NCBI GenBank assembly: GCA_013334765.1
Contig: JAAXWW010000001.1
Span: 108,589-172,588 of the forward strand
Source of the DNA: Candidatus Moraniibacteriota bacterium
GTDB taxonomy: Bacteria > Patescibacteriota > Minisyncoccia > Moranbacterales > UBA2206
Direction of reading: 5' to 3'
Length of the DNA stretch: 64,000 bases
Shown: positions 3,925-52,212 of the stretch, piece after piece
Numbering within the stretch: the stretch's first letter is position 1
Layout: each line of letters begins with the position of its first letter
Made by a program: the position numbers and the translations under genes
Notes under the pieces: model-generated
Seen by the model: only the letters and a program-made list of their open reading frames with translations
Databases searched by the model: none
What the model was told of the DNA's origin: nothing

Positions 3925-4059
3925 ATGATTCCAGACCATCGCAACAACGAAATGATGATCAAGGGAGTAGCCATCGCTTTCGTTGCCATATTCATGGCAG
4001 CGATGTCGTTCACGTTCGTGATGGCTGTCTATGGCTCGGCAGCATTGGCGATTAGGTAG
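3925..4059 (+). CDS. Candidate 44-aa hydrophobic micro-protein (MIPDHRNNEMMIKGVAIAFVAIFMAAMSFTFVMAVYGSAALAIR)
   Basis: ORF below the 60-aa cutoff of the ORF track; sits downstream of the strong promoter; single predicted TM helix; 'ggtga' about 8 nt upstream as a weak RBS. Confidence 0.25.
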   Translation: MIPDHRNNEMMIKGVAIAFVAIFMAAMSFTFVMAVYGSAALAIR

Positions 4060-18577: not shown

Positions 18578-18579
18578 GT

Positions 18580-18653
18580 GGGCTTATCTGGATTCGAACC
18601 AGAGACCTCGTCATTATCAGTGACGCGCTCTAACCAACTGAGCTATAAGCCCT
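18580..18653 (-). tRNA. tRNA-Ile (anticodon GAU)
   Basis: Reverse complement folds as a cloverleaf: GGGCTTATAGCTCAGTTGGTTAGAGC...CTGATAA...GGTTCGAATCC...TAAGCCCA. Confidence 0.85.
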
Positions 18654-18659
18654 TCCTGT

Positions 18660-18732
18660 GGACCCTATCGGGCTCGAACCGATCACCCCCTGCTTGCAAA
18701 GCAGGTGCTCTACCAAATGAGCTAAGGGCCCG
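18660..18732 (-). tRNA. tRNA-Ala (anticodon UGC)
   Basis: Reverse complement GGGCCCTTAGCTCATTTGGTAGAGC...CTTTGCAAG...GGTTCGAGCC...AGGGTCCA with G3:U70 Ala identity pair. Confidence 0.85.
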
Positions 18733-19771: not shown

Positions 19772-19834
19772 ATCAGATCAGGCTAAGTGTCTAAATTCAT
19801 TTTAGAGCTTCTCACTTCGCCCATAAAAAAAACA

Positions 19835-20260
19835 ATGGCAAAGAAAATCAAGGCAATCGTCAAACTACAGATTCAGGCGGGCAAAGCTAATCCTGCGCCT
19901 CCGGTCGGACCGGCTTTGGGACAGCATGGTCTCAATATTCAGGAGTTCTGCGTCAAATTCAATGAGGCGACCAAGGACAAAGGAACCGATATCATCCCGG
20001 CTGAAATAACCGTTTATGAAGACAGGACTTTCGAGTTCATCTTGAAGACTCCTCCTGCTTCTGACTTGCTCAGGAAAGCGGCAGGAGTGGCGAAAGGAGC
20101 TGGAAATCCTCTCAAGGACAAAGTCGGATCGATCAGTAAAGACAAGCTTCGCGAACTGGCTGAAAAGAAACTGCCTGACCTCAATGCGAACGATGTCGAT
20201 GGAGCGATGAAGATCATCGCCGGAACCGCAAGATCGATGGGGATAAAAATCGAGGGCTAG
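19835..20260 (+). CDS. rplK: 50S ribosomal protein L11
   Basis: '[29 protein letters not shown]'; start set at the internal Met 19835. Confidence 0.9.
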
Positions 20261-20281
20261 TTTTTATTCAGGCATATTTTT

Positions 20282-20425
20282 TGTCATCTCGAGCGTAATG
20301 AGTTCCGCTTGGTGGAACGAATGGAGTCGAGAGATCTGCCCACGAAATTGTTTCTGTGAATATTTCTGCCAGATTTCTCGACTTCGCTGCCTGCCTGCTG
20401 GCAGGCGCTTCGCTCGAAATGACAT
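20282..20425. repeat. MITE-like palindromic intergenic element, copy A (between rplK and rplA)
   Basis: Termini tgtcatctcgagcg / cgcttcgctcgaaatgacat and internal agtcgagagatctg...tcgacttcgct shared with copies at 29415, 35117 and 52045. Confidence 0.6.
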
Positions 20426-20482
20426 ATTATTAATACCTTAATCGTGGGAGGCTGCATATCAGCCGTCTGACCACAAAATATC

Positions 20483-21172
20483 ATGAAGCACGGAAAAAAA
20501 TACCGCGCGGTCGCAGAGAAGGTGGACAGGAATACTGTCTATGCTCTCGAGGAAGCGCTGAAGATCATCAAGGAGAACAAGACTGCCAAGTTCGATGAAA
20601 CTGTCGAGATTCACATCAAGACCAATATCGACCCGAAAAAGGGAGATCAGCAGATCCGTTCGACCGTATCCCTTCCGCATGGAGCTGGAAAGACAAAGAA
20701 AATCGCTGTCATTACGACGACTCATGCTGCTGACGCGAAAGCGGCTGGCGCTGAAATCGTGGGGGGCGAAGAAATGATTGACGAGATCAAGAGCGGCAAG
20801 ATTTTTGCCAAGGCCGGAGGATTCGATGTCCTGGTGGCGACTCCTGAAATGATGCCGAAACTCGCTCCGGTTGCCAAAATCCTGGGACCCAAGGGGTTGA
20901 TGCCGAACCCGAAAACTGAAACTGTGACTGTGAAAATCAAGGAAACAGTGGAGGCTCTCAAAAAAGGGAAAGCGGCATACAAGAACGACAATTCTGCCAA
21001 TATCCACCAAGCGGTCGGAAAAGTTTCTTTCGATGATGCGAAACTTTTGGAGAATATCAAGGCTTTCATGGATAGTCTTGAAAAGGCCAGACCGGTCGGA
21101 TTCAAAGGAAGGCTCATCAAGAGCATCTTCATCTGCTCTACGATGGGGATAGGAATCAAAGTCAATATCTAG
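20483..21172 (+). CDS. rplA: 50S ribosomal protein L1
   Basis: 'MKHGKKYRAV...ETVEIHIKTNIDPKKGDQQIRSTVSLPHGAGK'. Confidence 0.9.
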   Translation: MKHGKKYRAVAEKVDRNTVYALEEALKIIKENKTAKFDETVEIHIKTNIDPKKGDQQIRSTVSLPHGAGKTKKIAVITTTHAADAKAAGAEIVGGEEMIDEIKSGKIFAKAGGFDVLVATPEMMPKLAPVAKILGPKGLMPNPKTETVTVKIKETVEALKKGKAAYKNDNSANIHQAVGKVSFDDAKLLENIKAFMDSLEKARPVGFKGRLIKSIFICSTMGIGIKVNI

Positions 21173-21218: not shown

Positions 21219-21282
21219 TTTTCGTGCTTGACGCGGCGTACTCTTTTTGATACACTCACAAAGTGTTTTAATATTCAAAAAT

Positions 21283-21849
21283 ATGCCAAATAGAAAAATC
21301 GTTTTCGGATTGATCGGGGAAAAAGGAGCTGGGAAAGGGACTGTTTCGGATTATATGATCGAGAAATATGGGGCGGTGCATTATGGGACTTCCAAGATTC
21401 TCCGCCGCACGCTGGAGGATATCCACTTACCGGTTACAAGGGATAATCTGGTGAAACTGGCGCTGGTTCTAAAAGAAGGATACGGTCCTACGATAATCAT
21501 CGATTCGCTGATCCATGACATGGAAAAGAACGGGTCAGATATCCTGATTGCCGATGGGATCAGGATGCACGGCGATGTGGATCCTTTCAGGAAGAAATAC
21601 GGAGAAAACTTCTATTTGGTATATGTGACGGCTGATCTCAAACTCCGCTATGAGAGGACGAAGGCCAGGAAGGAAAAGGCCGGCGAAGGCGACGCGACAC
21701 TCGAGCAGTTCCTCGAAGAAGAGGGAAAGCTGACCGAAGTGTCCATTCATGAAATCGGCCGCCAAGCGGATTTCAAGCTCAACAACAACGGCACCCAGGA
21801 CGAACTGGAGGCGCAGGTGGAAGAGATGCTTGGAAAAATCAGGAAATAG
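21283..21849 (+). CDS. P-loop NTPase, nucleoside/deoxynucleoside monophosphate kinase-like
   Basis: Walker A 'GEKGAGKGT' at the N-terminus; about 190 aa; context of dNTP-metabolism genes. Confidence 0.45.
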   Translation: MPNRKIVFGLIGEKGAGKGTVSDYMIEKYGAVHYGTSKILRRTLEDIHLPVTRDNLVKLALVLKEGYGPTIIIDSLIHDMEKNGSDILIADGIRMHGDVDPFRKKYGENFYLVYVTADLKLRYERTKARKEKAGEGDATLEQFLEEEGKLTEVSIHEIGRQADFKLNNNGTQDELEAQVEEMLGKIRK

Positions 21850-21857
21850 CTTCGAAA

Positions 21858-21885
21858 ACCCTCCCGCTTAGCGGGAGGGTTTTTA
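21858..21885 (+). terminator. Rho-independent terminator
   Basis: accctcccgc-ttag-gcgggagggt followed by TTTTT. Confidence 0.65.
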
Positions 21886-21956
21886 AATCCTTGACTTTCT
21901 GCAGGATAGCAGATAGGATTGTCTCAGCGAAAAAATATAGCCGAGGAGGCATCACG

Positions 21957-22295
21957 ATGGATGACGGTATTGATCGGTATTTCAGTGTAATCGTTGTCGG
22001 AAGCAATTTGGCTAAACTCGATAATGAGGAAATCCTGGGAGTGATCCAAGCAGCCAAGAAGCTTACCGAGGTCGATCAATGGGTGAAAGATGAACGTTTC
22101 CTGCTCGATACTGGAGCAGGAAAGGCACTGGCTTTGAAACGGATCGAAGCTGGTGACAGAAAGCTCCTTCTTGAAATGGTGGCTTATAACTTGGGTGGGA
22201 CTCTTTACAGGATTCCGCCCAGTGAGCGAGACGCTTTTATTGATGAAGTTCTTGAACAAGCCAATAATCCTCTATTTTATTCTTTCTTCTTATGA
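21957..22295 (+). CDS. Hypothetical protein
   Basis: ORF with RBS gaggagg 8 nt upstream of the ATG at 21957; no recognised motif. Confidence 0.4.
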   Translation: MDDGIDRYFSVIVVGSNLAKLDNEEILGVIQAAKKLTEVDQWVKDERFLLDTGAGKALALKRIEAGDRKLLLEMVAYNLGGTLYRIPPSERDAFIDEVLEQANNPLFYSFFL

Positions 22296-22329
22296 GCCAT
22301 CCATCTGCCAGAGCAGAGTGCGGGCTTAG

Positions 22330-22366
22330 CCTGGGGAGCATCATTGCTCCCCAGGCCTTTTTTTTT
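22330..22366 (+). terminator. Rho-independent terminator
   Basis: cctggggagca-tcat-tgctccccagg followed by a T9 run. Confidence 0.65.
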
Positions 22367-22431
22367 GACTCCCAGGGTGAAAAATAGTAGGATTAAGGAA
22401 CTGAATAGGAAAAACGGGGGATGGTTAATAT

Positions 22432-22980
22432 ATGAAAATCATCGCGGTTATCGGTCTTCCTGGTTCTGGAAAATCAGAATTAATCTCTTATCTTATCGAA
22501 AAATATCATTGGCCGAAAGTATATTTCGGGGACGTTACTTTCGATGAAATGAAACGTCGCGAACTTCCGATCAATGAGAAAAATGAGAGGATGGTTCGGG
22601 AAGAGCTGCGGGAAAAGTACGGCAAATTGCATTATGCGGATAAGGTCATTGAAAAGATAGAATCATTGAGGGGTTCTGAATATGTGATAGTCGAAAGCCT
22701 GTATATGTGGGAGGAATATTTGAGATTCAAAGAAGAATTCGGCGATGACTTCGTAACGATAGCGGTTTATGCCTCTCCGAAAACAAGGTATAATCGCCTC
22801 ATGAATCGTGAATATCGTCCACTGACAGAAGAGGAATCAAAGAGCCGTGATTATGCGCAGATAGGAAACCTGAGCCAGGGCGGGCCGATTGCTATGGCAG
22901 ATTATCTGGTGGTGAATGAGGGGACGAAGGAAGAGCTTGTTGAAAAAACTGATAAAGTAATAAAAAATATAAATAAATGA
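22432..22980 (+). CDS. P-loop NTPase, (d)NMP kinase / dephospho-CoA-kinase-like, paralogous in role to the 21283 gene
   Basis: Walker A 'GLPGSGKSE' at residues 8-16; 182 aa. Confidence 0.45.
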   Translation: MKIIAVIGLPGSGKSELISYLIEKYHWPKVYFGDVTFDEMKRRELPINEKNERMVREELREKYGKLHYADKVIEKIESLRGSEYVIVESLYMWEEYLRFKEEFGDDFVTIAVYASPKTRYNRLMNREYRPLTEEESKSRDYAQIGNLSQGGPIAMADYLVVNEGTKEELVEKTDKVIKNINK

Positions 22981-22986
22981 AATCAT

Positions 22987-23556
22987 ATGGCAGTCAAGAA
23001 AAAAATGAAATCGACGCGGTTGGGCTGGGATGAGACTTTTATGAATATGGCGATAGTTTTGACGAGAAGGGTTTCTTGCCAGGTTGTGAAGACAGCCGCT
23101 GTCTATGTGGATGCGGATCACCGGGTTGTTTCTTTGGGATATAACGGACCAGTCAAAGGCGGATATAATTGCGATGAAGTCGGATGTGCCAAAATAGACG
23201 GTAATCCTAAAACTGGGAAATTGGAAAGGTGCCGGGGGGCTCATGCGGAAATGAATGGCATAATCAATGCGGTTGATCCGAGAGCTCTGAAGGGAGCAAC
23301 GCTTTATAGCGTGAAATTCCCTTGTTTTGATTGCATGAAAGCCTTGGCCAACGCTGGCATAAAGGAAATAGTCTATTATGAGAAATATCTGAGGACGCAG
23401 ACCGGTGGCGAAAAATTCGAAGAGGAGACAGAGGCGGAAGATTTGGCGAAGATGAAAAAGATAAAAATAAGGAAATTCGAAGGAAATGTGCTCTCTGATC
23501 CAGCCGAAAGCCGTGATTCCAAGGAACATAAGAAGGGCGGTAAGAAGTGCTGCTGA
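22987..23556 (+). CDS. dCMP deaminase (cytidine/deoxycytidylate deaminase family)
   Basis: 'HAEMN' zinc motif and 'PCFDCMKALANAGI' (PCxxC). Confidence 0.8.
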   Translation: MAVKKKMKSTRLGWDETFMNMAIVLTRRVSCQVVKTAAVYVDADHRVVSLGYNGPVKGGYNCDEVGCAKIDGNPKTGKLERCRGAHAEMNGIINAVDPRALKGATLYSVKFPCFDCMKALANAGIKEIVYYEKYLRTQTGGEKFEEETEAEDLAKMKKIKIRKFEGNVLSDPAESRDSKEHKKGGKKCC

Positions 23557-23600
23557 CTGTAAAAGGCAATATATTAATTAGTAAACTTAAAAATATTCAT

Positions 23601-24656
23601 ATGGATAAAAAACATCCCGAGTATCAATATCTTGATTTATTAAAAGATATTCTTGATAACGGCTCCGATAAACAGCTATTCTTCACTCCGGAAATTTTAA
23701 AACAGTATGAAGAAAAAGGAGAACAGCCGCCTTTCATTCGCTCTGTTTTCGGTAGAATGATCCGGTTTGATCTGAATGAAGGATTTCCTCTGCTTACTAC
23801 TAAGAAAGTTTTTCATCGCGGTATTTTTACAGAGCTCATATGGTTTTTAAGGGGAGATTCGAATATAAAATATCTTGCTGATAATGACGTTCATATCTGG
23901 GATGAATGGGCCTGGAAGCGCTATCATAAAGCAGCATTGGCAGGTCAGCATGATGACATGACTCAACAGGATTTCATTGCCAAAATAAAAGCGGAAGATA
24001 AAGACAGCGAATTCGTGAAGACCTGGGGGGACCTCATCACAATCTATGGGCGCATGTGGAGGAGATGGCCGGCAAGTGATGGGCGAGAAATCGATCAGTT
24101 AGCTTGGGTTATCGATGGACTTAAAAACGATCCTTATCGCAAGTCTTATGTGGTTTCTTCCTGGAACCCAGACTTCATATATGCCATGGCTTCTGCTGGG
24201 AACAAGAATGAGGTTCCTCCATTCTGCCATACGACCTATCAATTCGGAGTTGTTAATGGAAAGTTGAACCTGGCTCTTTTTCAAAGAAGCGCTGATTCTT
24301 TTCTGGGAGTTCCGTTCAATATTGCAAGCTATGCCTTGCTTTTGCAGATGGTAGCTCAGGTCACCAATCTTCCAGTCGGAGAATTCGTGCATTTCTTTGG
24401 CGATGTCCATGTCTATTCCAATCATATGGATCAGGTCAAGGAGCAGATTTCGAGAATTCCAAAGGCTTTCCCAATTTTGAAGCTCAACTCGGAAATAACT
24501 GATATAGACGGATTTTCAATGAAGGACATCGTTCTGGAAAATTATGACCCGCACCCGATTCTTAAGGCTGAGATTGCTAATATTGGAGGCTTTAAAGAAA
24601 CGACCAAGAATTATGCCAGCAAGTCGGCTTGCGCTAAGGAACAAGATAAGAAATAA
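23601..24656 (+). CDS. thyA: Thymidylate synthase (ThyA)
   Basis: 'PPFCHTTYQF' catalytic Cys loop and 'LALFQRSADSFLGVPFNIASYALLLQM'. Confidence 0.85.
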   Translation: MDKKHPEYQYLDLLKDILDNGSDKQLFFTPEILKQYEEKGEQPPFIRSVFGRMIRFDLNEGFPLLTTKKVFHRGIFTELIWFLRGDSNIKYLADNDVHIWDEWAWKRYHKAALAGQHDDMTQQDFIAKIKAEDKDSEFVKTWGDLITIYGRMWRRWPASDGREIDQLAWVIDGLKNDPYRKSYVVSSWNPDFIYAMASAGNKNEVPPFCHTTYQFGVVNGKLNLALFQRSADSFLGVPFNIASYALLLQMVAQVTNLPVGEFVHFFGDVHVYSNHMDQVKEQISRIPKAFPILKLNSEITDIDGFSMKDIVLENYDPHPILKAEIANIGGFKETTKNYASKSACAKEQDKK

Positions 24657-24658
24657 TT

Positions 24659-25132
24659 ATGATTTCAATGATATGCGCGGTCGGGAGCAATAGGGCGATC
24701 GGTTGCAAAAATAAGCTTATCTGGGATATTCCCAATGATCTTCAACATTTCAAGAAGATTACTCTTGGTCATACAGTCATTATGGGAGACAGGACTTTTG
24801 AGTCGATCGGACGACCGCTTCTGGGAAGGAAAAATATCGTGGTAAGTCTCGATGAGAACTACGAAGCGCCCGGATGCGAAGTTTCTCATTCACTGGAAAA
24901 TCTTCTGGATGAAGCGAAAAAATCGGATGAGGAAATTTTCATTATCGGCGGAGCGACGATCTATCGCTTGACGCTGCCATATGCGGACAAGCTATATCTT
25001 ACTCTTGTCGATGATGCTCCGATTGATGCTGATGTGTTTTTTCCCGATTTTTCCGAATTCAAGAATGAAATTTCTCGCGAAGAACACGAAGAAAACGGAT
25101 TCAAATATGCGTTTGTGGAACTAATAAAATAA
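24659..25132 (+). CDS. folA: Dihydrofolate reductase
   Basis: 'MISMICAVGSNRAIG...LIWDIP.D...F...T.G..VIMG..T'; 157 aa, immediately after thyA. Confidence 0.85.
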   Translation: MISMICAVGSNRAIGCKNKLIWDIPNDLQHFKKITLGHTVIMGDRTFESIGRPLLGRKNIVVSLDENYEAPGCEVSHSLENLLDEAKKSDEEIFIIGGATIYRLTLPYADKLYLTLVDDAPIDADVFFPDFSEFKNEISREEHEENGFKYAFVELIK

Positions 25133-25143
25133 GATTATGCAAT

Positions 25144-25692
25144 ATGATTCTAGGTATTCAGGAACTTCACAAATTGGTCAAGGAGAATAAATTAGTTGAA
25201 GATTTGTGTGATAGGGAAATCAATAATCCGGAAGGCGCGGGTTTTGATTTGAGATTAGGCGAGGTCTTTGAGCTCGAGGGCGACGGATTTTTGGGTGTTG
25301 AAGAAAGACAGACCCCGAACTCTAAATCCGTTGCGAAATATGATTCAAAAAAAATAGACGACGAAAACTTTTTCGTTTTCGAACCCGGAAAATATTATCT
25401 AATAAAGACGATAGAGAAGGTTAATCTGCCAGTGACGCTTTCAGGAGTAATTTTTCCCAGAACCACCATGTTCCGTTCGGGTCTCGGACTTTTCAACGGA
25501 GTTGTCCAACCTGGATATTGCGGAGAGCTGACTTTCGGCATTTGCAATCTAGGGGAAAGCAACATCAAGGTTTCTTTTGGCGCAAGAGTCGTTCACATCA
25601 CCTTTCATGAAGTTCTTGGAGAAGGCAATCAATACCGCGGGCAATGGCAAGGAGGTCGTGTCAGCACTGGCGGAAAAGAAGTGCAAGTGTAG
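25144..25692 (+). CDS. dcd: dCTP deaminase / dUTPase-superfamily enzyme
   Basis: 'AGFDLRLG' and 'VVQPGYCGEL' motifs of the dCTP deaminase/dUTPase fold. Confidence 0.65.
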   Translation: MILGIQELHKLVKENKLVEDLCDREINNPEGAGFDLRLGEVFELEGDGFLGVEERQTPNSKSVAKYDSKKIDDENFFVFEPGKYYLIKTIEKVNLPVTLSGVIFPRTTMFRSGLGLFNGVVQPGYCGELTFGICNLGESNIKVSFGARVVHITFHEVLGEGNQYRGQWQGGRVSTGGKEVQV

Positions 25693-25716
25693 GTTTTCTT
25701 CGAAATGAATAAAAAA

Positions 25717-25752
25717 CAGGGAGGTCTCTTTTGGGACCTCCCTTTATTTTTT
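25717..25752. terminator. Bidirectional rho-independent terminator between convergent dcd and the Nudix gene
   Basis: gggaggtc...gacctccc stem with T-runs on both strands. Confidence 0.65.
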
Positions 25753-25773
25753 GCCCAACCTCCCTGGATTAGG

Positions 25774-26391
25774 TCAGGATGCCGACAGGAATTCGAGCAA
25801 GTGGCTGAAAATCAACCGGGACCAGTTTTCAAAGGGCTCCTTCTGAATGATGATGCCGACATCGCCGGCGTCCAGGAACATGCCCCAGAGTGCTTCGCCG
25901 CTTCTGGACCTGATAACCTTGCATCCTGTGTGAAGGATGAAGACGATGCCCAAATGAACCTGGCCCACGGAATCGCTGTCGTCGTTGATGATTCCGAAAA
26001 GCTCGAGTTTCTCTTTCTGGATCATGAGGTCGCGGTCAACGCCTTTGACCTCTTCTTGGAGTTCCCTTCTAATGTTGTCAGGGATGCTCTCATCGTTTTC
26101 GATGTGCCCTCCGACGCCCAGTGATACCTTCCCGCGGAGCCGCTTTTCTTCGTAGTCCTTTTCTTTAATCGAGCGCTGGTAGGTGTATACCCGCTTGTCA
26201 GGGTTGAGTATGACCGTGTAAGGGATGAGCTGCTTGAAATCGGTGTTTTTTTCAGCCTGTTCCTTTTCAATCATGTGTGCTTCCCTAGCCAGCCTGTCGA
26301 TGATGGCTGGATCGGAGAGCGGGACGAAGCCCTGAAGATTCCCGATGATGGCGGGAAGCTTGTCCGTTCTAACAACAAGAACCTGACGCAT
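25774..26391 (-). CDS. Nudix hydrolase family protein
   Basis: Nudix box 'GGHIENDESIPDNIRRELQEEVKGV' (Gx5Ex7REx2EExG); start trimmed to the internal Met so it does not overlap gatB. Confidence 0.6.
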   Translation of the reverse strand: MRQVLVVRTDKLPAIIGNLQGFVPLSDPAIIDRLAREAHMIEKEQAEKNTDFKQLIPYTVILNPDKRVYTYQRSIKEKDYEEKRLRGKVSLGVGGHIENDESIPDNIRRELQEEVKGVDRDLMIQKEKLELFGIINDDSDSVGQVHLGIVFILHTGCKVIRSRSGEALWGMFLDAGDVGIIIQKEPFENWSRLIFSHLLEFLSAS

Positions 26392-28479: not shown

Positions 28480-29409
28480 CTATCCTAGGAATTCCTTAGC
28501 TTCTTTTTCTATGTCAGCATAATCATTCAGCCATAATATCCTCCTGTCTTTCTTGAACCAGGTCATCTGCCTCTTGGCATAATCCTTTTCCGATTGATAG
28601 GTCTTTTCGAACGCTTCGTCTTTTGAAATGCGTCCTTTGAAATATTGGGTTATCCAATAATATCCGAGACCGATTTCTTCCAGTCTTTTCCAGGATACGC
28701 CGCCTTCTAAATGCAGCTTCCCGACTTCCTCGACCATGCCGTTGTCGAATCTTTGCTTGAGCCTTATCCTGATCCTTTCATCAAGAACCTCTTTGGGATG
28801 CGTTATGCCTATCTGGAGGAACTCATAGGATGACTTTTCATTCCCAGTATTGATTGCCGGGACTTTTCCGATAGCTTTGCAGATCTCGATAGCCCGTATG
28901 AGGCGGACCTTGTTTTTGGCATCTATGCTGCTGGCCCGTTCCGGATCGATTTTTTTGAGCTCTTCGAATAATTCAGCGGCGGATTTTTCCGATAGCTTTT
29001 CCCGCAGTTTTGGGTCTGGCTTCACTTCCGGAAATATGGCATTGTCCACGACCGCCTTGATCCAGAAACCGGTTCCGCCGCAGATGATGGGCAGTTTTCC
29101 GCGCTTCAGCATATCCTTGATGATTTTCCCGGTTTTTCTTTTGAACTGGGCGGCGCTCCAGGAGGTCTTCGGACTCAGGATGTCTATCAGGTGATGCGGG
29201 ACATCTTCTGAAATGAAGGTTTTGCTATCCTCATTCCATATCCCAACAACTTTTCCCGTGCCGACATCCATCCCGCGATAGATCTGGCGCGAATCGGCGC
29301 TGATCACTTCACCATCGAATTTCTTCGCTAGGCGAATAGCCGCATCCGATTTTCCTGATGAGGTCGGTCCTAGGATGACGATTATTTTATTGAAATTTTT
29401 CATTGGCAT
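28480..29409 (-). CDS. miaA: tRNA dimethylallyltransferase
   Basis: P-loop 'ILGPTSSGKS' and 'SADSRQIYRGMDVGTGK'. Confidence 0.9.
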   Translation of the reverse strand: MPMKNFNKIIVILGPTSSGKSDAAIRLAKKFDGEVISADSRQIYRGMDVGTGKVVGIWNEDSKTFISEDVPHHLIDILSPKTSWSAAQFKRKTGKIIKDMLKRGKLPIICGGTGFWIKAVVDNAIFPEVKPDPKLREKLSEKSAAELFEELKKIDPERASSIDAKNKVRLIRAIEICKAIGKVPAINTGNEKSSYEFLQIGITHPKEVLDERIRIRLKQRFDNGMVEEVGKLHLEGGVSWKRLEEIGLGYYWITQYFKGRISKDEAFEKTYQSEKDYAKRQMTWFKKDRRILWLNDYADIEKEAKEFLG

Positions 29410-29414
29410 TATGA

Positions 29415-29578
29415 TGTCATCTCGAGCGGAGCATGGCTATTTCGTAGAAATGATCATGCGAAGTCGAGAGATCTGGTTGTGAAATATTCACTAGGTAGAT
29501 TATTGCCAGATTCCTATGCTACCGCTGAAGCTAAGGCGACACGCGGTCGACTTCGCTACGCTTCGCTCGGAATGACAT
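29415..29578. repeat. MITE-like palindromic element, copy B (between miaA and miaB)
   Basis: gtcatctcgagcgg...gcgaagtcgagagatctgg...gctaaggcgacacgcggtcgacttcgctacgcttcgctcggaatgacat. Confidence 0.6.
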
Positions 29579-29585
29579 AAGAAAG

Positions 29586-30869
29586 CTATTTTGTAATAGT
29601 ACCCTCCAGATTCCAGCAATTTGCTTTTACAATTTTCAGTTCTACTAATTTTCCGACTAAGCCTTTTTTATCGCTTTCGAATCTGACATGTTTTCCGGTA
29701 CGGGTCCGGGCGAAATAAATAGCATCATCTTCTTTTCTATCCACTAGAACCTCCATCATTTTCCCGACATATTTCCTGTTGTTGGCAGCCGCGGTTTCTT
29801 TGAGGATTTCATTCAGTGAATTCTCTCGGTATGCCTTTTCTTTTTTGGAAACGTTGTCTTTCATTTTCCACGCGACGGTGCCGGGGCGCGGGGAGAATTG
29901 TCCGAAATATACCATGTCATATTTGACCTTTTTCATGACTTCGGCGGAATCGGCAAATTGCTTCCTGGTTTCTCCCGGGAAGCCGACGATTATGTCGGAG
30001 GTGATGGAATAGGGCGTACCTGGTTTGTATTTCTTGAAGGCCGCCTTTATTTTCTTTGCGAGTGCCAAATATTGTTTCCGGGTATATTTCCTGTTCATCC
30101 TTTCCAGTATCTCGTCATTTCCAGCTTGCAGAGGGAGATGGATCAGTTCCGAGATCTTTTTCGATTTGGCGATGGTTTCGATGAGTTCGTCGGAATAATC
30201 CTTGGGATGGGCGGACATGAAAGACAGCCAGAATTTCCCGGGAATTTTTTCGATATCTTTCAGAAGCTTCGGGAAATCAGTATTTCCGAAATTATATGAG
30301 TTTACGTTCTGACCCAAGAGGATTATTTCTTTGTATCCCTGCCTGATAAGATTCCTGATTTCCTGGATTATATCTTCTGGATCCCTGGAAATCTCACGGC
30401 CTCTGGCATAGGGGACGACGCAATAGGAACAGAAATTGTCGCAGCCGGTCATGATAGGGACGGAAGCGGTGAAGGCGCTTGAATAGGCAGGCGTTATTTT
30501 CAGATAGTCGCTCCCATTGCTTTCTTGGCTGTTCTTCGCACCTATCAATCTTCCTAGTTCTTCAGGGAAGTCTTTTATTTCCAGGAACAGGTCGACTTTG
30601 TCACGGAGCCTTCTTTGGACATCTTTCCGGTTGGCTAGGCAACCGGTGAGGACTATCTTTTTATCCGGATAGGATTCTTTCAAATTGTGGATCTGGCCAT
30701 AAACCCGGTCTTCCGCCATTTGGCGCACTCCGCAAGTGTTGAAAATGACTAAAGAGGCATTTTTTACGTCTAGCGCGGCGCTGAAACCATGCATCTCTAA
30801 AAACCCGGAAATCCGCTCAGAATCGCTATGGTTCATTTGACAGCCGAATGTTTTGATGTAGTATTCCAT
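29586..30869 (-). CDS. miaB: Radical-SAM methylthiotransferase MiaB (tRNA-i6A37 methylthiotransferase)
   Basis: UPF0004 N-domain 'IKTFGCQMN', radical SAM 'CDNFCSYC', C-terminal TRAM; adjacent to miaA. Confidence 0.75.
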   Translation of the reverse strand: MEYYIKTFGCQMNHSDSERISGFLEMHGFSAALDVKNASLVIFNTCGVRQMAEDRVYGQIHNLKESYPDKKIVLTGCLANRKDVQRRLRDKVDLFLEIKDFPEELGRLIGAKNSQESNGSDYLKITPAYSSAFTASVPIMTGCDNFCSYCVVPYARGREISRDPEDIIQEIRNLIRQGYKEIILLGQNVNSYNFGNTDFPKLLKDIEKIPGKFWLSFMSAHPKDYSDELIETIAKSKKISELIHLPLQAGNDEILERMNRKYTRKQYLALAKKIKAAFKKYKPGTPYSITSDIIVGFPGETRKQFADSAEVMKKVKYDMVYFGQFSPRPGTVAWKMKDNVSKKEKAYRENSLNEILKETAAANNRKYVGKMMEVLVDRKEDDAIYFARTRTGKHVRFESDKKGLVGKLVELKIVKANCWNLEGTITK

Positions 30870-34260: not shown

Positions 34261-35049
34261 ATGGAACAGGAAACAAATCAGAGCGAGGAAAAAAATTGGA
34301 AGAAATACAAGATCGCAATCAGGTTTTTCGGCATGCTGATTCTGGGCGCGATAGTCATCGTTTCCATCCTGCGCGAGAGGATCGTCAATCCGCCGCAGAA
34401 CAGGGTGACGGTTGCCGGCGAGGGGAGGGTGGAATATTCTCCCGATCAGGCGACCATAACTCTCGGCGTTCAGGTCTTCAAGGCTCCGACAGCGCAGGAT
34501 GCCTTGAATCAGCTCAACGACAAGATGAAAAGCGTCACTTCTTCAATAAGGAGCGCCGGAGTGGACGACAAGGATATCAAGACCGATACGTATTCGTTGA
34601 GCCCGCAATACGATTATGCTGACGGGACAAGCACCGTTTCCGGATATAACGCCAATCAGAATCTTGAAATCAAAGCCAAAGATATCAAGAAGAACAGCGC
34701 GCTTGTCGCGAGCATCATCCAGGCCGCTTCATCCCAGGGGGTGAACCGGGTACTAGGCGTTGATTTCGATACGTCTGATCTGGAAAGCTTCAAGCAAGAG
34801 GCGAGAGTGAAAGCTATCGAAGATGCCAAGAAGAAAGCGGATGAGCTTTTCAAGTCAGCCGGAATGCGGGAAGGAAAAGTCGTCGGGTGGCATGAGAATT
34901 CAGTGAACATTCCATGGACATATGGCAGGAATTATGATGCGATGGGCGGATCTCTTACGGATTCGGCTAAGGCGGTATCAGTTCCGGAAGTGCCATCAGG
35001 AACCCAAGAAGTGGTCGTCGAAGTCGGCGTGGATTATGCCGCGAACTAG
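34261..35049 (+). CDS. SIMPL-domain (DUF541 / BP26-like) protein
   Basis: N-terminal TM then 'VTVAGEGRVEYSPDQATITLGVQV', characteristic of the SIMPL/DUF541 family. Confidence 0.65.
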   Translation: MEQETNQSEEKNWKKYKIAIRFFGMLILGAIVIVSILRERIVNPPQNRVTVAGEGRVEYSPDQATITLGVQVFKAPTAQDALNQLNDKMKSVTSSIRSAGVDDKDIKTDTYSLSPQYDYADGTSTVSGYNANQNLEIKAKDIKKNSALVASIIQAASSQGVNRVLGVDFDTSDLESFKQEARVKAIEDAKKKADELFKSAGMREGKVVGWHENSVNIPWTYGRNYDAMGGSLTDSAKAVSVPEVPSGTQEVVVEVGVDYAAN

Positions 35050-35116
35050 ATATATATGAAATCGAAAATAAGAAGCGATACGCAAGTATCGCTTTTTTTG
35101 ATTATGATATGGATAT

Positions 35117-35292
35117 CGTCATCCTGAGCGGAATGACGAAACGATAGCGGAGGAATGAAGTCGAAGGATCTAGCAATGAAAATTTCTATGATTGTATATG
35201 AGGGAAGATTTCTGTGCCGCCGCTAAAGCTTTGGCGACACGCGGTCGACTTCGCTTCCTGCCTGCTGGCAGACGCTTCGCTCAAAATGACAT
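35117..35292. repeat. MITE-like palindromic element, copy C (between the SIMPL gene and the dnaE 3' end)
   Basis: cgtcatcctgagcgg...gaagtcgaaggatct...ggcgacacgcggtcgacttcgcttcctgcctgctggcagacgcttcgctcaaaatgacat. Confidence 0.6.
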
Positions 35293-35295
35293 TTT

Positions 35296-38200
35296 TTATG
35301 CACTGACTTTGACTTTCACCTCAGGCGCTATCAAGCTCAATTCCTCTTCGATTTTTTCGGAAAGGGCTATGGAATAATTGGTCTTCACTTTCTTGCCGCT
35401 TATCCATAGGTATATTTTCACGTCTCCCTTTTCGCAGTTGGCGAAATAGTCTGAAAGGCTCTTGATGGCAGAGGGATCGATGCTTGCCGGGAGGACCACT
35501 TCCGCGGAGGCTTCCGGCGCTTCCGATTTCGGAACGAAAGCGTCGCCGTTAGCTTTCCTGGTTTCCAGGATGCGGCGGAACCTTTCGACTTCCTGATTGT
35601 TGACCGCGCTGGCGCTGTCGACCAGGAATTTCGCGCTTCCGTCCTTGTCGGATATCTTTCCTGACGCGAGGATTATCTTGTCTTCCACCCAAAGGGAAGC
35701 TGATTCTTCAAGGATCTTGGGGAAAACGATGAACTCTATGGATGACTCCGTGTCTTCTATGGTCACGAACATCATGGCTTTGCCGGTTTTAAGATATATT
35801 TTCTTGGTCTTGGTTATGATGCCTCCGAGATTGACGCTCTTTCCAGCGAGATGGCTGCCGATATTCCTGAGCGGAACGGCCATATGCTCGAAATATTCCT
35901 TGTATTCATGCATGGGGTGATCGCTGATGTATAGTCCCATGAGTTCCTTTTCCCAGGCGAGGCGCTGTTTTTTGTCAGCAGGAATGGCCGCGACCAGCTG
36001 GATTTCCGGCAAGGTAGCCTCGATGTCGCCGAAAAGGCTTATCTGGGCTGAGTTCCTGACATTATTAAAGTTCTTGATGTGGGTGATGATGTTTTCGACG
36101 GATTGGATTATCTGGTTCCTTTCTCCCATCATATCGAGCGCTCCGACTTTCGCCAGCGCCTCGATGGATTTCTTGTTCAAATCTTTCGTGTCGACTCTTT
36201 CCGCCAGGTCGCGCAGGCTTTTGAATTTCCCGTTCCTCTTCCTTTCCTCAACGATTTCATGCGCGACCGTGCGGCCGACATTCTTGATGGCATTCAGTCC
36301 GAACCTGATCTTGTTCCGCCGGCTGGCGGATTCCTCCTCGCCTTTTATGACCGCGAATTCCTCGAAGCTCTCATTCACGTCGGGTGGAAGGACTTCGATG
36401 CCCATTTCACGGCATTCCGAAACCTCGATTGCCACGCGATCGATATCGTCCTGATCGGAAGTGAGAAGGGCTGCCATGAATTCGGCAGGGAAATGAGCTT
36501 TGAGATAGGCGGTCTGATAGCCGATAAGGCCATAGCAGGCGGCATGCGAACGGTTGAATCCGTATCCGGCGAAAGGTTCGATATATGCGAAGACTTCTTC
36601 TGCCACTTTCTTGGTGATGCCGTTGGCGACGCATCCCTCGACGAATTTTATCTTCTGCTCCTTGATGAGATCGAAAATCTTCTTGCCGACCGCTTTCCTG
36701 AGAACGTCAGCTTCGCCGAGCGTGAATCCGGCAAGCGCCTGAGCGATCTGCATGATCTGCTCCTGATATACTGCTACGCCATAGGTTTTCCCCAGGATCG
36801 ATTCCAGTTTCGGATGGAGATAGGTTATTTTCTTTTCGCCGTGCTTCCTGGCAATAAAGTCTGGAATCCAATCCATCGGACCCGGGCGATAGAGGGCGAC
36901 CATAGCGATGACATCTTCAAGGTCGTTGGGTTTCAAGAGTTTCAGATATCTTTTCATGCCGGAACTTTCAAGCTGGAACACTCCGGTGGTCTGTGCTTTC
37001 TGAAGAAGCTCGAAAGCCTTCTCATCATCAAGAGGTATCTTGTCTATATCAACGTCTATGCCTTTCGTTTTCTTGACTATTCGGAGGGTGTTCTGGATGA
37101 TGGTGAGATTCTTGAGTCCCAAAAAGTCCATTTTGAGAAGGCCGATCTTTTCCACGAAACTGGATTTGGTCGATGAGGAATATTGTGTCACGCAGCCTTC
37201 CCCTTTGCCTTGGATTTTCTGAAGAGGAGAATATTCCGTGACGGGTTCCGGCGTGATGACTACTCCGCAAGCATGCATGCCGGCATGGCGCACCACTCCT
37301 TCGAGCCGCTTGGCGCTGTCGATCAGCTTCTTGGCATCGGGACCGCTGTCGTAGAGGTCTTTGAATTCCTTCACTTCTTCCAATGCTTTCGAGATGGAAG
37401 AGAACATCGGGATCATCTGGGAAGTCTTGTTGCAGAAATCATAGGGGAGACCGAGAGCCCGTCCGGTGTCGCGGATGGCAGCGCGGGCTGCCATGGTTCC
37501 GAAGGTGATGATCTGGGCGACATGGTCATTGCCATATCTCCTTCTGACATAATCCAGAACGTCGTCGCGCCTGTCGTCAGCGAAGTCCATATCGACATCG
37601 GGCATGGAGATCCTTTCCGGATTGAGGAACCTTTCGAACAGAAGGTCATACTTGATCGGATCCATGTTGGTGATGCCGACAAGATAGGACACGAAGCTTC
37701 CGGCGGCGCTTCCGCGTCCCGGTCCGGTGACGATGCCGTTGTCCTTGGCCCAGTTCACGAAATCCTGGACGATAAGGAAGTATGACGCATAGCCGGTCTT
37801 CTCGATGACCGAAAGCTCGTATTCCATGCGGTCCCTCTGTTCTTTGGTGATATCCTGGTCGCCGTATCTTTTTATGAGCCCTTCTTCGCACATCTGTCTC
37901 AGGAAGCTCATAGGAGTATGACCATCGGGAACATCGAAATGGGGGAGCTTGGTTTCGCCGAGCTTCAGTTTGAACTCGCAAAGGTCGACTACTTTCTGGG
38001 TATTGGAAAGAACCTCCGGATTATCCGGGAAACCGGCTGCCACTTCCTCCGGGCTCCTGAGAGACAGATTGAAATCCATAAGGTTCATGCGGTTGGTCTC
38101 ATCCACTTTGCGGTTGGTCTGCACGCAAAGGAGGATATCCTGCGCCGATGCGTCTTCCTTGCGGACATAATGGACATCGCAGGTCGCGACTACCAGCAGG

Positions 38201-38808
38201 TCAAGCTCTTTAGCTAGCTTGAAAATTCCTTTATTGGCGATTTTCTGGGGCTCGAAATTGGGATGATCCTGCACTTCCAGAAAGAAGCTGCCTTCATCGA
38301 AAATATCCTTGTATTCCAGTGCAAGATTCTTGGCTTTCTCGTAGTCTCCAGTAATAATGGCGACAGGAATTTCTCCCTCAGCGCACGCGCTCAGTCCCAC
38401 GAGCCCTTTAGCATATTGCCGCAGGACCTTGCGGTCGATGCGCGGCTTGTAATAGAACCCGTCGAGGTGGGCGATGGAAACCAGCTTCATGAGGTTGTGA
38501 TAGCCTTCCTCGTTCTTGACCAGCAGGATGAGATGATGGCGCTTCCTGTCTTCGGCAGTCGGATTCTTGCTGTGAAGGTCGTTGGCGGTTATATACATCT
38601 CGCAACCGATGATCGGCTTGATTCCTTTTTCTTTGGCTTTGATGAAAAGCTCCACTGCGCCATACATGACCCCGTGGTCGGTGAGGGCGATCGAATCCAT
38701 GCCGAGCTCCTTGGCGCGGTCAATAAGGTCGTCGATCTTCCCGAGGCCGTCGAGCAGGGAATAGTGGGAATGGACGTGGAGGTGGGTGTATTTCAATTGT
38801 TCAGGCAT
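35296..38808 (-). CDS. dnaE: DNA polymerase III alpha subunit
   Basis: PHP domain 'LHVHSHYSLLDG', polymerase core, OB-fold; 1170 aa. Confidence 0.9.
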   Translation of the reverse strand: MPEQLKYTHLHVHSHYSLLDGLGKIDDLIDRAKELGMDSIALTDHGVMYGAVELFIKAKEKGIKPIIGCEMYITANDLHSKNPTAEDRKRHHLILLVKNEEGYHNLMKLVSIAHLDGFYYKPRIDRKVLRQYAKGLVGLSACAEGEIPVAIITGDYEKAKNLALEYKDIFDEGSFFLEVQDHPNFEPQKIANKGIFKLAKELDLLVVATCDVHYVRKEDASAQDILLCVQTNRKVDETNRMNLMDFNLSLRSPEEVAAGFPDNPEVLSNTQKVVDLCEFKLKLGETKLPHFDVPDGHTPMSFLRQMCEEGLIKRYGDQDITKEQRDRMEYELSVIEKTGYASYFLIVQDFVNWAKDNGIVTGPGRGSAAGSFVSYLVGITNMDPIKYDLLFERFLNPERISMPDVDMDFADDRRDDVLDYVRRRYGNDHVAQIITFGTMAARAAIRDTGRALGLPYDFCNKTSQMIPMFSSISKALEEVKEFKDLYDSGPDAKKLIDSAKRLEGVVRHAGMHACGVVITPEPVTEYSPLQKIQGKGEGCVTQYSSSTKSSFVEKIGLLKMDFLGLKNLTIIQNTLRIVKKTKGIDVDIDKIPLDDEKAFELLQKAQTTGVFQLESSGMKRYLKLLKPNDLEDVIAMVALYRPGPMDWIPDFIARKHGEKKITYLHPKLESILGKTYGVAVYQEQIMQIAQALAGFTLGEADVLRKAVGKKIFDLIKEQKIKFVEGCVANGITKKVAEEVFAYIEPFAGYGFNRSHAACYGLIGYQTAYLKAHFPAEFMAALLTSDQDDIDRVAIEVSECREMGIEVLPPDVNESFEEFAVIKGEEESASRRNKIRFGLNAIKNVGRTVAHEIVEERKRNGKFKSLRDLAERVDTKDLNKKSIEALAKVGALDMMGERNQIIQSVENIITHIKNFNNVRNSAQISLFGDIEATLPEIQLVAAIPADKKQRLAWEKELMGLYISDHPMHEYKEYFEHMAVPLRNIGSHLAGKSVNLGGIITKTKKIYLKTGKAMMFVTIEDTESSIEFIVFPKILEESASLWVEDKIILASGKISDKDGSAKFLVDSASAVNNQEVERFRRILETRKANGDAFVPKSEAPEASAEVVLPASIDPSAIKSLSDYFANCEKGDVKIYLWISGKKVKTNYSIALSEKIEEELSLIAPEVKVKVSA

Positions 38809-50913: not shown

Positions 50914-52026
50914 ATGATAGAAATAACGAAAAAGGAAAAAAACAGCAGATCGCTGACTTTTAAGACGAAGAGCGGAGTAATCAATACTCCGTTTTTTATG
51001 CCTGACGCGACGCGCGGATTCGTGAAGTCGATGGGATTGGACGATCTTCGCGGTGTCGGGATGGGTCCGATGGTAGTGAACACATATCATCTCTATCTCC
51101 AACCGGGAATGGAGCTTGTGAAGGAAGCTGGCGGGGTGCATAAGCTCATGAATTGGGACAAGCCGCTCCTTTCCGACTCGGGCGGGTATCAGGTGTTTTC
51201 GCTGATCCACAAGAATCCGAAGATGGGTAAGGTCACCGAAGACGAGGTCATTTTCAAGTCGCCGCTCGACGGTTCGATGCACAGGATCACTCCGGAAAAG
51301 GCGATCGAGATCCAATTCGATCTGGGAGTGGATATGATGGTATGCTTGGATGACCCTTGTCCGAATGATTATCCTAAGGAGAAAATCGCGGCGGCAGTCG
51401 AGCGGACCATCCGCTGGGGCAGGAGATGCAAGGATGAATACGCGAGGCAGATTGCGGCGAGGAATATTCCCGAAGAGAACCGCCCGCTCATTTTCGGCGT
51501 CATTCAAGGCGGGGAATATCTGGATCTCAGGAAACGCTGCGCGGATGGATTGGCCCAAATCGGTTTCGACGGCTATGGTTTCGGGGCGCGGCATGTGGAT
51601 TCGGATGGCAATTTCTTGAGCGAGGTTCTGGAATATACGGCGAGCATCATCCCTGAAAATGCTCTCCGCTTCGCGTTGGGAATCGGGACGCCGTCGGATA
51701 TCGTGAAATGCCATTCGTTCGGTTGGGATATGTTCGACTGTGTCATTCCGACGCGCGAGGGGCGTCATGGCAAGCTTTTCGTCTGGAAAAGGGACGCTGA
51801 TATCCATAGCGGTTCTTTCTATGAGACAGTGAACATGAACAATGAAAAGTTCCGGCATGACTTTTCTCCGGTGGACGCGGATTGCGAGTGCGAGCTTTGC
51901 AGGAATTATTCCCGCGGCTATCTCCAGCATCTTTTCAGAATGAAGGAACCGCTTGGGATGCGCCTTTCCGCGATCCATAACCTGAAGTTCTATATGGAGT
52001 TGATGGAGAAACTGAGAGCGTCTTAG
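50914..52026 (+). CDS. tgt: Queuine tRNA-ribosyltransferase
   Basis: 'FMPDATRG', 'LSDSGGYQVFSL', zinc site 'CECELC...H'. Confidence 0.85.
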   Translation: MIEITKKEKNSRSLTFKTKSGVINTPFFMPDATRGFVKSMGLDDLRGVGMGPMVVNTYHLYLQPGMELVKEAGGVHKLMNWDKPLLSDSGGYQVFSLIHKNPKMGKVTEDEVIFKSPLDGSMHRITPEKAIEIQFDLGVDMMVCLDDPCPNDYPKEKIAAAVERTIRWGRRCKDEYARQIAARNIPEENRPLIFGVIQGGEYLDLRKRCADGLAQIGFDGYGFGARHVDSDGNFLSEVLEYTASIIPENALRFALGIGTPSDIVKCHSFGWDMFDCVIPTREGRHGKLFVWKRDADIHSGSFYETVNMNNEKFRHDFSPVDADCECELCRNYSRGYLQHLFRMKEPLGMRLSAIHNLKFYMELMEKLRAS

Positions 52027-52044
52027 GAGTCATAGTTTATTTTT

Positions 52045-52212
52045 TGTCATTTCGAGCGAAGTTATTTTATCCCGCTTTGCGGGATAAAATAACGCAGTCG
52101 AGAGATCTGCTTTCTAATATTTTCTGTATATGTTTATTGCCAGATCCCTGCGCCACCGCTAGAGCTAAGGCGGCACGTGGTCGACTTCGCTCCGCTACGC
52201 TCGGGATGACAT
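52045..52212. repeat. MITE-like palindromic element, copy D (between tgt and the U32 peptidase gene)
   Basis: tgtcatttcgagcg...[perfect hairpin ttattttatcccgctttgcgggataaaataa]...cagtcgagagatctg...gctaaggcggcacgtggtcgacttcgctccgctacgctcgggatgacat. Confidence 0.6.

Follow-up and report, generated by a model that had tools for sequence, protein, structure and literature searches.

Paired TGTC-tagged hairpin repeats in a Moraniibacteriota genome as probable members of a divergent, Ssn-related class

The 64,000-nucleotide stretch analyzed here (the window; contig JAAXWW010000001.1, positions 108,589 to 172,588, of the Candidatus Moraniibacteriota bacterium assembly GCA_013334765.1) contains four copies of an intergenic palindromic repeat, one of which lies between the ribosomal protein genes rplK and rplA. 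Each element is probably a head-to-head pair of hairpin units that resemble repetitive extragenic palindromic (REP) sequences, carry a TGTC tag and are related to the targets of Ssn nucleases. The pair would be a non-autonomous derivative, similar to a MITE (a miniature transposable element with inverted repeats), of a module in which an ssn gene is enclosed by two such units. The elements are the gene-free dimer form of a divergent class of Ssn-related hairpin repeats, and the published search pattern for Ssn-related motifs (SRM) misses this class. Membership in the superfamily of tagged hairpins is well supported by architecture, by association with a nuclease gene and by profile search. Since this membership is supported and the published consensus is not matched, we treat the elements as a variant of a known system rather than as a new kind.

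Architecture of the four elements

The copies, designated A to D, are colinear, 144-176 nt long, all on the + strand and all intergenic. Their alignment gives a mean column identity of 70%, and a repeat finder recovers them independently (families D1, D2, D4, and D17). A preliminary description of the window had placed four copies of a REP- or MITE-like palindromic repeat at these positions, and both the coordinates and the intergenic, non-coding character of the repeat hold. Pfam matches also agree with the gene pairs it had named on the flanks, which are L11 and L1, IPPT (miaA) and UPF0004 + Radical_SAM + TRAM (miaB-like), SIMPL and DnaE, and TGT and peptidase U32.

Each element consists of two inverted half-units flanking an AT-rich spacer of 30-60 nt. 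A half-unit reads, in order, a (T/C)GTC tag, a 5-nt arm of AT followed by NNN, GAGCG, a free-sequence hairpin, AGTCGA, a closing arm of NNN followed by AT, and a CT(G) tail; all eight half-units in the window begin with TGTC or CGTC and then AT. Several shared parts noted earlier find their place in this plan. The inverted termini are the tags and first arms of both half-units, the internal inverted pair corresponds to the two AGTCGA-arm segments, and the 'tgccagat' block is the tail of the right half-unit; the 'gctaaggcgacacgcggtcgacttcgct' block is likewise present. The terminal motif GTCATYYNGAGCG occurs nine times in the window versus 1.4 expected, and eight of these occurrences are the eight element ends, while AGTCGARRGATCT occurs five times versus 0.46 expected, always within elements. 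Neither regular-expression nor hidden Markov model (HMM) searches found additional copies or singleton half-units in the 64-kb window. The parts of the elements are as follows, with E values from the HMM of gene-flanking units described below.

Element A, 20282..20425, + strand: heterodimer of half-units, between rplK (19787-20260) and rplA (20483-21172)
A left half-unit, 20282..20339, + strand: TGTC tag, stem ATCTC/GAGAT (triplet perfectly complementary), GAGCG...AGTCGA, tail CTG
A left variable hairpin, 20302-20318: gttccgc-ttg-gtggaac
A right half-unit, 20369..20425, - strand: TGTC tag, stem ATTTC/GAAAT
A right variable hairpin, 20389-20406, - strand: GCCTGCC-AGCA-GGCAGGC, the 'cctgcctgctggcag' module of the preliminary description
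A HMM matches: 20276-20339 (+), E 1.3e-5; 20426-20370 (-), E 1e-4
Element B, 29415..29578, + strand: between miaA (28480-29409, -) and the miaB-like gene (29586-30869, -)
B left half-unit, 29415..29476, + strand: stem ATCTC/GAGAT, with its own variable hairpin catggctatttc-gta-gaaatgatcatg
B right half-unit, 29507..29578, - strand: stem ATTCC/GGAAT, short GCGTAGCGAAG core, 31-nt extra hairpin at 29516-29546
B HMM matches: 29415-29475 (+), E 2e-5; 29578-29548 (-), E 4.8e-4
Element C, 35117..35292, + strand: most degenerate copy, between the SIMPL gene (34261-35049, +) and dnaE (35296-38808, -)
C left half-unit, HMM match 35116-35171 (+), E 2.6e-4: stem ATCCT/AGGAT
C right half-unit, 35204..35292, - strand: stem ATTTT/GAAAT (tag-strand T.G wobble), without HMM match
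C right-half modules: ctgcc-agca-ggcag hairpin at ~35257-35272 and 31-nt insert at 35214-35244
Element D, 52045..52212, + strand: between tgt (50914-52026, +) and the U32 peptidase gene (52217-53494, +)
D left half-unit, 52045..52110, + strand: stem ATTTC/GAGAT (tag-strand T.G wobble); variable hairpin at 52062-52092 with a perfect stem of 14 bp
D right half-unit, 52140..52212, - strand: stem ATCCC/GGGAT, 31-nt insert at 52150-52180
D HMM matches: 52041-52110 (+), E 8e-6; 52211-52142 (-), E 1.1e-3

Each copy does have a short hairpin of its own in the second position, as first reported, and the 14-bp stem of copy D is indeed perfect. The optional modules on which two sub-variants had been based are also real, but the copies do not divide cleanly into A and C versus B and D, because C carries both the cctgcctgctggcag hairpin and the ...ggcgacacgcgg block. 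In B, C, and D the 'gctaaggcgacacgcgg' block forms an extra hairpin of 31 nt, inserted in the right half after AGTCGA and before the closing arm. On the tag strand the consensus of this insert, common to the right halves of the three copies, is approximately CCRCGTGYCGCC..AGC..GCGG, and it was not found in other genomes among 223 loci. The left-half hairpins of the four elements are wholly unlike one another and the right-half modules are common to several copies, which gives the repeats a mosaic pattern.

Compensatory changes within half-units

A scan of species-representative genomes with a 26-nt two-block pattern located the half-unit in at least 120 stretches. The covariation sample consisted of 192 units from other genomes, taken from the loci among the matches listed. 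The variable stem triplet is perfectly complementary in 180 of them and appears as nine complementary triplet types. The base preceding GTC is T in 169 units and C in 12, and the tail reads CTG (87 units), CTC (45), CTT (34), or CTA (19). Nearly every instance has the same half-unit fold, with an unpaired tag, a 5-bp stem, a tandem GA/GA mismatch and a GC/G(T)C step with a bulged T (units of this design are called GA-type below); the distal part comprises a small internal loop and then the variable hairpin. The variable region folds better than shuffled sequences, with a median z of -2.5.

When a whole element is folded as RNA or DNA, long stems between the two halves are predicted. The heterodimers bear directly on these stems. 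Among 32 dimers with outward tags, 20 are heterodimers, as are all four window copies, and Watson-Crick pairing in the 20 is found in 116 of 120 cases within a half versus 72 of 120 between halves. In every window copy the left arm differs from the right, yet the halves are self-complementary with two exceptions, the right half of C and the left half of D; both imperfect stems contain G.T wobbles on the tag strand. These compensatory changes support a hairpin within each half and contradict inter-half stems. The whole palindrome with its terminal and internal stems is not retained as the functional unit; that role falls to each half, a tagged hairpin.

Association with a single-domain GIY-YIG gene

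All open reading frames (ORFs) of 120 loci from the matches listed, about 1 Mb in total, were clustered. The only recurrent small gene bounded by units in these loci encodes a GIY-YIG protein, and no transposase of the Y1, DDE, or serine family was found near units among the ORF clusters. At three loci (L074, L076, and L054) a gene of ~100 codons lies exactly between two inverted units with their tags outward, and at L074 it is surrounded by perfect terminal inverted repeats (TIRs) of ~57 nt. Its product is a single GIY-YIG domain (Pfam PF01541, E 1e-11 to 3e-15). The reverse test, based on 80 metagenome loci encoding relatives of this protein, finds GA-type units in the expected orientation on both sides of the gene at 19 loci and on one side at 22, relative to a background of 0.0056 units per 250 nt per orientation. 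Seventeen loci scored as unflanked were viewed by eye, and most of them hold variants of the half-unit design, for example TGTCATCCCGAGCGAAGCGAGGGATCTGCAG. In the metagenome loci the GA-type tags mostly point outward from the gene (left 25 vs 12, right 35 vs 13).

The window elements were linked to these gene-flanking units through an HMM trained solely on 68 of the latter, none taken from the window. The model yields seven matches in the 64-kb window, with E values from 8e-6 to 1e-3, all on half-units and covering seven of the eight halves; nothing else in the window matches up to an E value of 10.

The GIY-YIG protein of L076 aligns by tblastn with an N. gonorrhoeae chromosome at 41.6% identity over 89% coverage (E 4e-18). 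The matched region has canonical NTS repeats on its flanks and lies in a part of the record that carries no annotation; judging from the sequence, this locus is probably ssnA. We assign the gene family to Ssn on account of its homology to this NTS-flanked, ssnA-like gonococcal locus. We note that two 2.17-Mb Neisseria gonorrhoeae chromosomes are filed as plasmids in the plasmid collection, and that the ssnA-like frame in L223 (NZ_CP119142.1) seems interrupted near its 5' end, with an ORF of only 71 aa where tblastn aligns 98 codons. No solved structure of SsnA was found, the nearest being that of UPF0213 protein BH0048 (E 6e-10).

Comparison with known tagged repeats

Chenal et al. (2025, Nat Commun 16:2388, PMC11893778) described the Neisseria NTS CGTCATTCCCGCGMAVGCGGGAATCYRG and related SRM. 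The ssnA gene that these repeats flank codes for a single-domain GIY-YIG protein of 94 aa. This protein, SsnA, binds the hairpin solely in single-stranded DNA and solely on the strand with the tag; it cuts upstream of the tag, does not bind RNA, and modulates natural transformation (PMC11893778). The NTS-ssnA-NTS layout was called insertion sequence (IS)-like, with mobility not shown, and the SRM search pattern was derived from 29 genomes in four phyla (PMC11893778). No later paper on the Ssn/SRM system was found in the literature, and a literature search with literal sequence strings of the elements returned no relevant paper.

The present repeats share with SRM an unpaired HGTC tag, a hairpin stem that starts with AT (W-Y in the pattern: A-T, T-A), and a mostly intergenic location. 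GA-type units also flank a ~100-aa single-domain GIY-YIG gene on both sides, which holds for the family and not inside the window, and the protein that goes with them shows homology to the gene of the NTS-flanked, ssnA-like N. gonorrhoeae locus. The differences lie in the stem, which is only 5 bp here and continues with tandem G.A and GC/G(T)C; in a free-sequence hairpin of 9-70 nt in place of a 3-5-nt loop; in a CTG instead of a CYRG tail; and in stable heterodimers, which in the window copies occur without any gene. The range of hosts also differs and includes the candidate phyla radiation (CPR), Firmicutes, Actinobacteria, and Acidobacteriota, the last of which is not mentioned in the text of PMC11893778.

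Di Nocera et al. (2013, PMC3733652) described CGTC/TGTC-tagged REPs that have AT at the first stem positions, form head-to-head dimers and occur in several phyla; this superfamily includes the Neisseria dRS3/NIME and Rickettsia RPE-4/RPE-6 repeats. No tyrosine transposase flanked by CGTC repeats and no dedicated transposase was found for them (PMC3733652). Our repeats have in common with these the CGTC/TGTC tag, A-T and T-A at stem positions 1 and 2, a predominance of head-to-head dimers with frequent heterodimers, the presence in several phyla, and the lack of a tyrosine transposase. The published repeats have a continuous 8-9-bp stem, a 4-5-nt loop and a CCA tail, whereas the stem is interrupted here (5 bp, GA/GA, then 2 bp with a bulged T), the hairpin is nested and the tail is CTG.

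More distant likenesses exist to REP doublets (REPINs) with their REP-associated tyrosine transposases (RAYTs) and to bacterial interspersed mosaic elements (BIMEs), which also show tagged hairpins, inverted doublets, module mosaics and a single-copy nuclease gene flanked by repeats. In the REP/REPIN-RAYT system, unlike here, the tag is GTAG and the enzyme a HUH Y1 protein, as opposed to TGTC and GIY-YIG, and REP sequences are lineage-specific, whereas the present motif is nearly identical across phyla. The ends of IS200/IS605 elements and their palindrome-associated (PATE) derivatives similarly carry subterminal hairpins recognized as single-stranded DNA, lack target-site duplications and are acted on strand-specifically, but no TnpA or TnpB is associated with the present units. 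No covalent intermediate arises with GIY-YIG nucleases, so a peel-and-paste mechanism should not be taken for granted.

Alternative explanations and the level of selection

The elements could be cis-acting structured RNAs (terminator, attenuator, mRNA stabilizer, or processing site) or small non-coding RNAs selected as RNA, options that the preliminary description had raised in part. The folds predicted for their transcripts are very stable (A -73 kcal/mol, z -9.1; B -69.8, z -5.8; D -68, z -6.0), every copy is intergenic, and A lies within the rplK-rplA operon. We nevertheless find such a role improbable. The Rfam search detects only two tRNAs at the gathering threshold in the whole window and nothing relevant at E<=10 on A and B. 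Both strands look alike because the conserved parts are palindromic, and all four elements have one common orientation despite flanking genes arranged +/+, -/-, +/-, and +/+. The covariation backs the half-unit stem and not the long stems of the RNA minimum-energy fold. No T-run follows the elements except C, which has a canonical terminator upstream, and neither a sigma-70-like promoter nor a + strand terminator-like site is present in or adjoining A. The loops are of a DNA type, as C-GNA-G accounts for 41 of 91 triloops and GNRA for 8 of 70 tetraloops, and SsnA does not bind RNA, as mentioned above.

The tag strand also folds better than its complement (p 1e-5 to 5e-16) and has more G.T pairs, 225 versus 114 overall, an excess that reaches significance with the conserved inner part included. 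We therefore favor selection on tag-strand single-stranded DNA, on the basis of the strand-symmetric conserved parts, the orientation independent of transcription, the lack of an Rfam family, the C-GNA-G loops, the tag-strand folding, and the published activity of SsnA on single-stranded DNA only. RNA-level side effects on the operons that hold elements are possible, and element A may affect rplK-rplA expression.

It is very unlikely that the elements are REPINs mobilized in trans by a RAYT or another IS200/IS605-type Y1 (HUH) transposase acting on hairpins. Such a system would follow the same logic of tagged hairpins, inverted doublets, singletons, and absent target-site duplications, and Acidobacteria encode RAYT-like TIRYT genes (PMC3733652). 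The tag is TGTC and not GTAG, however, only the GIY-YIG gene recurs by units in the 120 clustered loci, where no recurrent transposase family is seen, and the CGTC repeats of Di Nocera et al. occur without a flanked tyrosine transposase (PMC3733652). An ordinary MITE, that is, a deletion derivative of a DDE-transposase insertion sequence with the same TIRs, would account for TIRs of ~13-20 nt, small size, intergenic location and several copies, but it can be dismissed almost entirely, as none of the four copies shows flanking direct repeats or a target-site duplication, the 'TIR' forms a conserved hairpin of its own within which bases covary, single halves are common, the clustered loci contain no DDE transposase or parent IS bounded by units, and cross-phylum conservation of the 26-nt motif is unusual for IS ends.

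Proposed mechanism and significance

By homology with NTS and SsnA of Neisseria, the Ssn-related hairpin pairs would act in single-stranded DNA, either the lagging-strand template or incoming transforming DNA, where each half would fold on its own strand. In the predicted fold, an unpaired (T/C)GTC tag precedes a 5-bp stem that opens with A-T and T-A; the tandem G.A/A.G mismatch comes next, then two G-C pairs with a bulged T, and finally the distal free-sequence hairpin. A cognate single-domain GIY-YIG nuclease (Ssn), possibly encoded in this genome, would bind the hairpin as single-stranded DNA only and on the tag strand only, and would nick a few nucleotides 5' of the tag. Recombination or transformation would thereby be modulated at the loci on either side, and the repeats might be propagated as well. 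Recognition and cleavage of single-stranded DNA in this organism are thus proposed on grounds of that homology.

Several observations weigh against this interpretation. The published SRM pattern, HGTCWYN(0-2)YYVSBRHN(0-5)WNVSBRGN(0-2)RNCYNB, has no match in the window on either strand; canonical NTS matches it, and five minimal GA-type units, four of them flanking GIY-YIG genes, all fail. In GA-type loci most tags point away from the gene, but at the single Neisseria locus studied the nearest NTS tags point toward it. No ssn or other GIY-YIG gene is present in the 64-kb window and none was seen in the CPR loci examined, so a cognate nuclease in this lineage is hypothetical. To our knowledge, mobility driven by Ssn has never been demonstrated. 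The right halves of B, C, and D, three of the window's eight half-units, may be inactivated by the 31-nt insert that they carry, and because the copies are only ~70% alike, any spread in this genome would be old. Finally, the G.T excess restricted to the variable hairpin (63 vs 43, p 0.06) is a trend only.

The module or its nuclease may have a role in mobility. In the fullest form of this idea, about which we are doubtful, the unit-ssn-unit arrangement would be an autonomous mobile element with the GIY-YIG single-stranded DNA nuclease as its mobilizing enzyme, and the GA-type heterodimers would be its MITEs. If true, this would be the first class of IS-like transposons in bacteria to be based on GIY-YIG, and the heterodimers would have reached more than 15 phyla by horizontal spread, among them the CPR with their reduced genomes, where they colonize even ribosomal-protein operons. 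The gene-free dimers and the gene-bearing copies with perfect TIRs (L074) provide material to test movement of the module. The Ssn/SRM pairing was described only in 2025, and the present class is structurally distinct from it in its interrupted stem with tandem G.A, nested hairpin and stable heterodimers; it enlarges the catalogue of candidate nuclease/target pairs for single-stranded DNA tools.

Insertion sites and neighboring genes

The best named matches to the window's L1, at 73-77% identity, come from Candidatus Moranbacteria/Moraniibacteriota and Pacebacteria, which places the host among the CPR bacteria. Comparison with related genomes indicates that the elements are insertions, as the spacers at rplK-rplA and miaA-miaB are far shorter in relatives. 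In the window these spacers measure 222 and 176 nt, respectively. Gene order is unchanged in a relative with 82% L1 identity, whose spacers are 32 and 4 nt long, and in another with 80% L1 identity the rplK-rplA spacer is 10 nt. A clean empty site at high identity was not found, and the 10-32-nt spacers of the 80-82% relatives are not alignable base by base. In the closest relative, whose L1 is 93% identical, another AT-rich palindrome occupies this rplK-rplA spot. Long AT-rich palindromes unrelated to the elements occur at the same sites in close relatives, between rplK and rplA in L202 (200-300) and between miaA and miaB in L204 (13870-14025). In Moranbacteria-like genomes, hairpin repeats seem to have landed repeatedly in both spacers.

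A GTGGGAG motif just upstream of the rplA start, overlapping it in some gene calls, is invariant in the window and four relatives (window 20441-20470; L202 ~335-365; L203 ~808-835; L204 ~4010-4025), and a TGACC motif follows ~20 nt later in the window, L202, and L203. The GTGGGAG motif is possibly the mRNA site of L1 autoregulation, and element A, positioned upstream, leaves it intact. The insertion between rplK and rplA, singled out in the preliminary description, is thus of note as a repeat landing upstream of a conserved motif and not as a new regulatory RNA.

GC skew is positive across nearly the whole window, and its combination with the single orientation of the elements is suggestive, with four copies only. 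An intrinsic terminator, gaagcgatac-gcaa-gtatcgc followed by T7 (window 35072-35100), ends the SIMPL gene just upstream of C; since this canonical terminator is already in place, element C is not needed for that function. Downstream of rplA lies a nucleotide-metabolism cluster and not rplJ-rplL-rpoB (window 21247-26124; L001 2666-7075). It comprises two AAA_17/18 kinases, dCMP deaminase, ThyA, DHFR, and dCTP deaminase, in place of which relatives have ThyX and thymidylate kinase. Two adjacent tRNA genes (window 18579-18731, - strand) are located upstream of secE-nusG-rplK.

Distribution in other genomes

The half-unit is found in ~15 phyla among the matches listed, in which Acidobacteriota predominate. 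The same matches include Clostridia, Actinobacteria, Bacteroidota/Rhodothermota, Ignavibacteriota, Omnitrophota, and Gemmatimonadota, as well as Planctomycetota, Verrucomicrobiota, Spirochaetota, Fibrobacterota, Proteobacteria, and Bdellovibrionota. Six CPR lineages are also among the matches listed, including a Moraniibacteriota metagenome-assembled genome (L108) with a heterodimer that is very similar to B and D. Across the loci, full dimers occur as well as singletons of one half-unit. One heterodimer recurs in Clostridia, Kapaibacteria, and CPR, with ATCCT and a long hairpin on the left and ATTCT with GCGTAGCGTAGCGAAG on the right. A phage origin was considered and rejected, given that 2.9 million viral contigs hold only 13 stretches with the pattern and that nuclease relatives are encoded at only four viral loci.

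The singletons of Acidobacteriota (L015, L026, L091, and others) typically precede ...ATCTGCGGTTG... and, beyond it, a second conserved hairpin, GGGTGCCCCATCC...GGATGGG/GGGTGGG, and so form BIME-like mosaics. Six-frame translation of the units at many loci (e.g., L006, L012, and L066) gives recurrent pseudo-peptides, CHPERS...VEGS and ...SLRMT. These link unrelated ORFs in BLAST searches and are a likely source of spurious hypothetical proteins, so that a common origin of 'CHPERS...VEGS' ORFs in annotations is accounted for.

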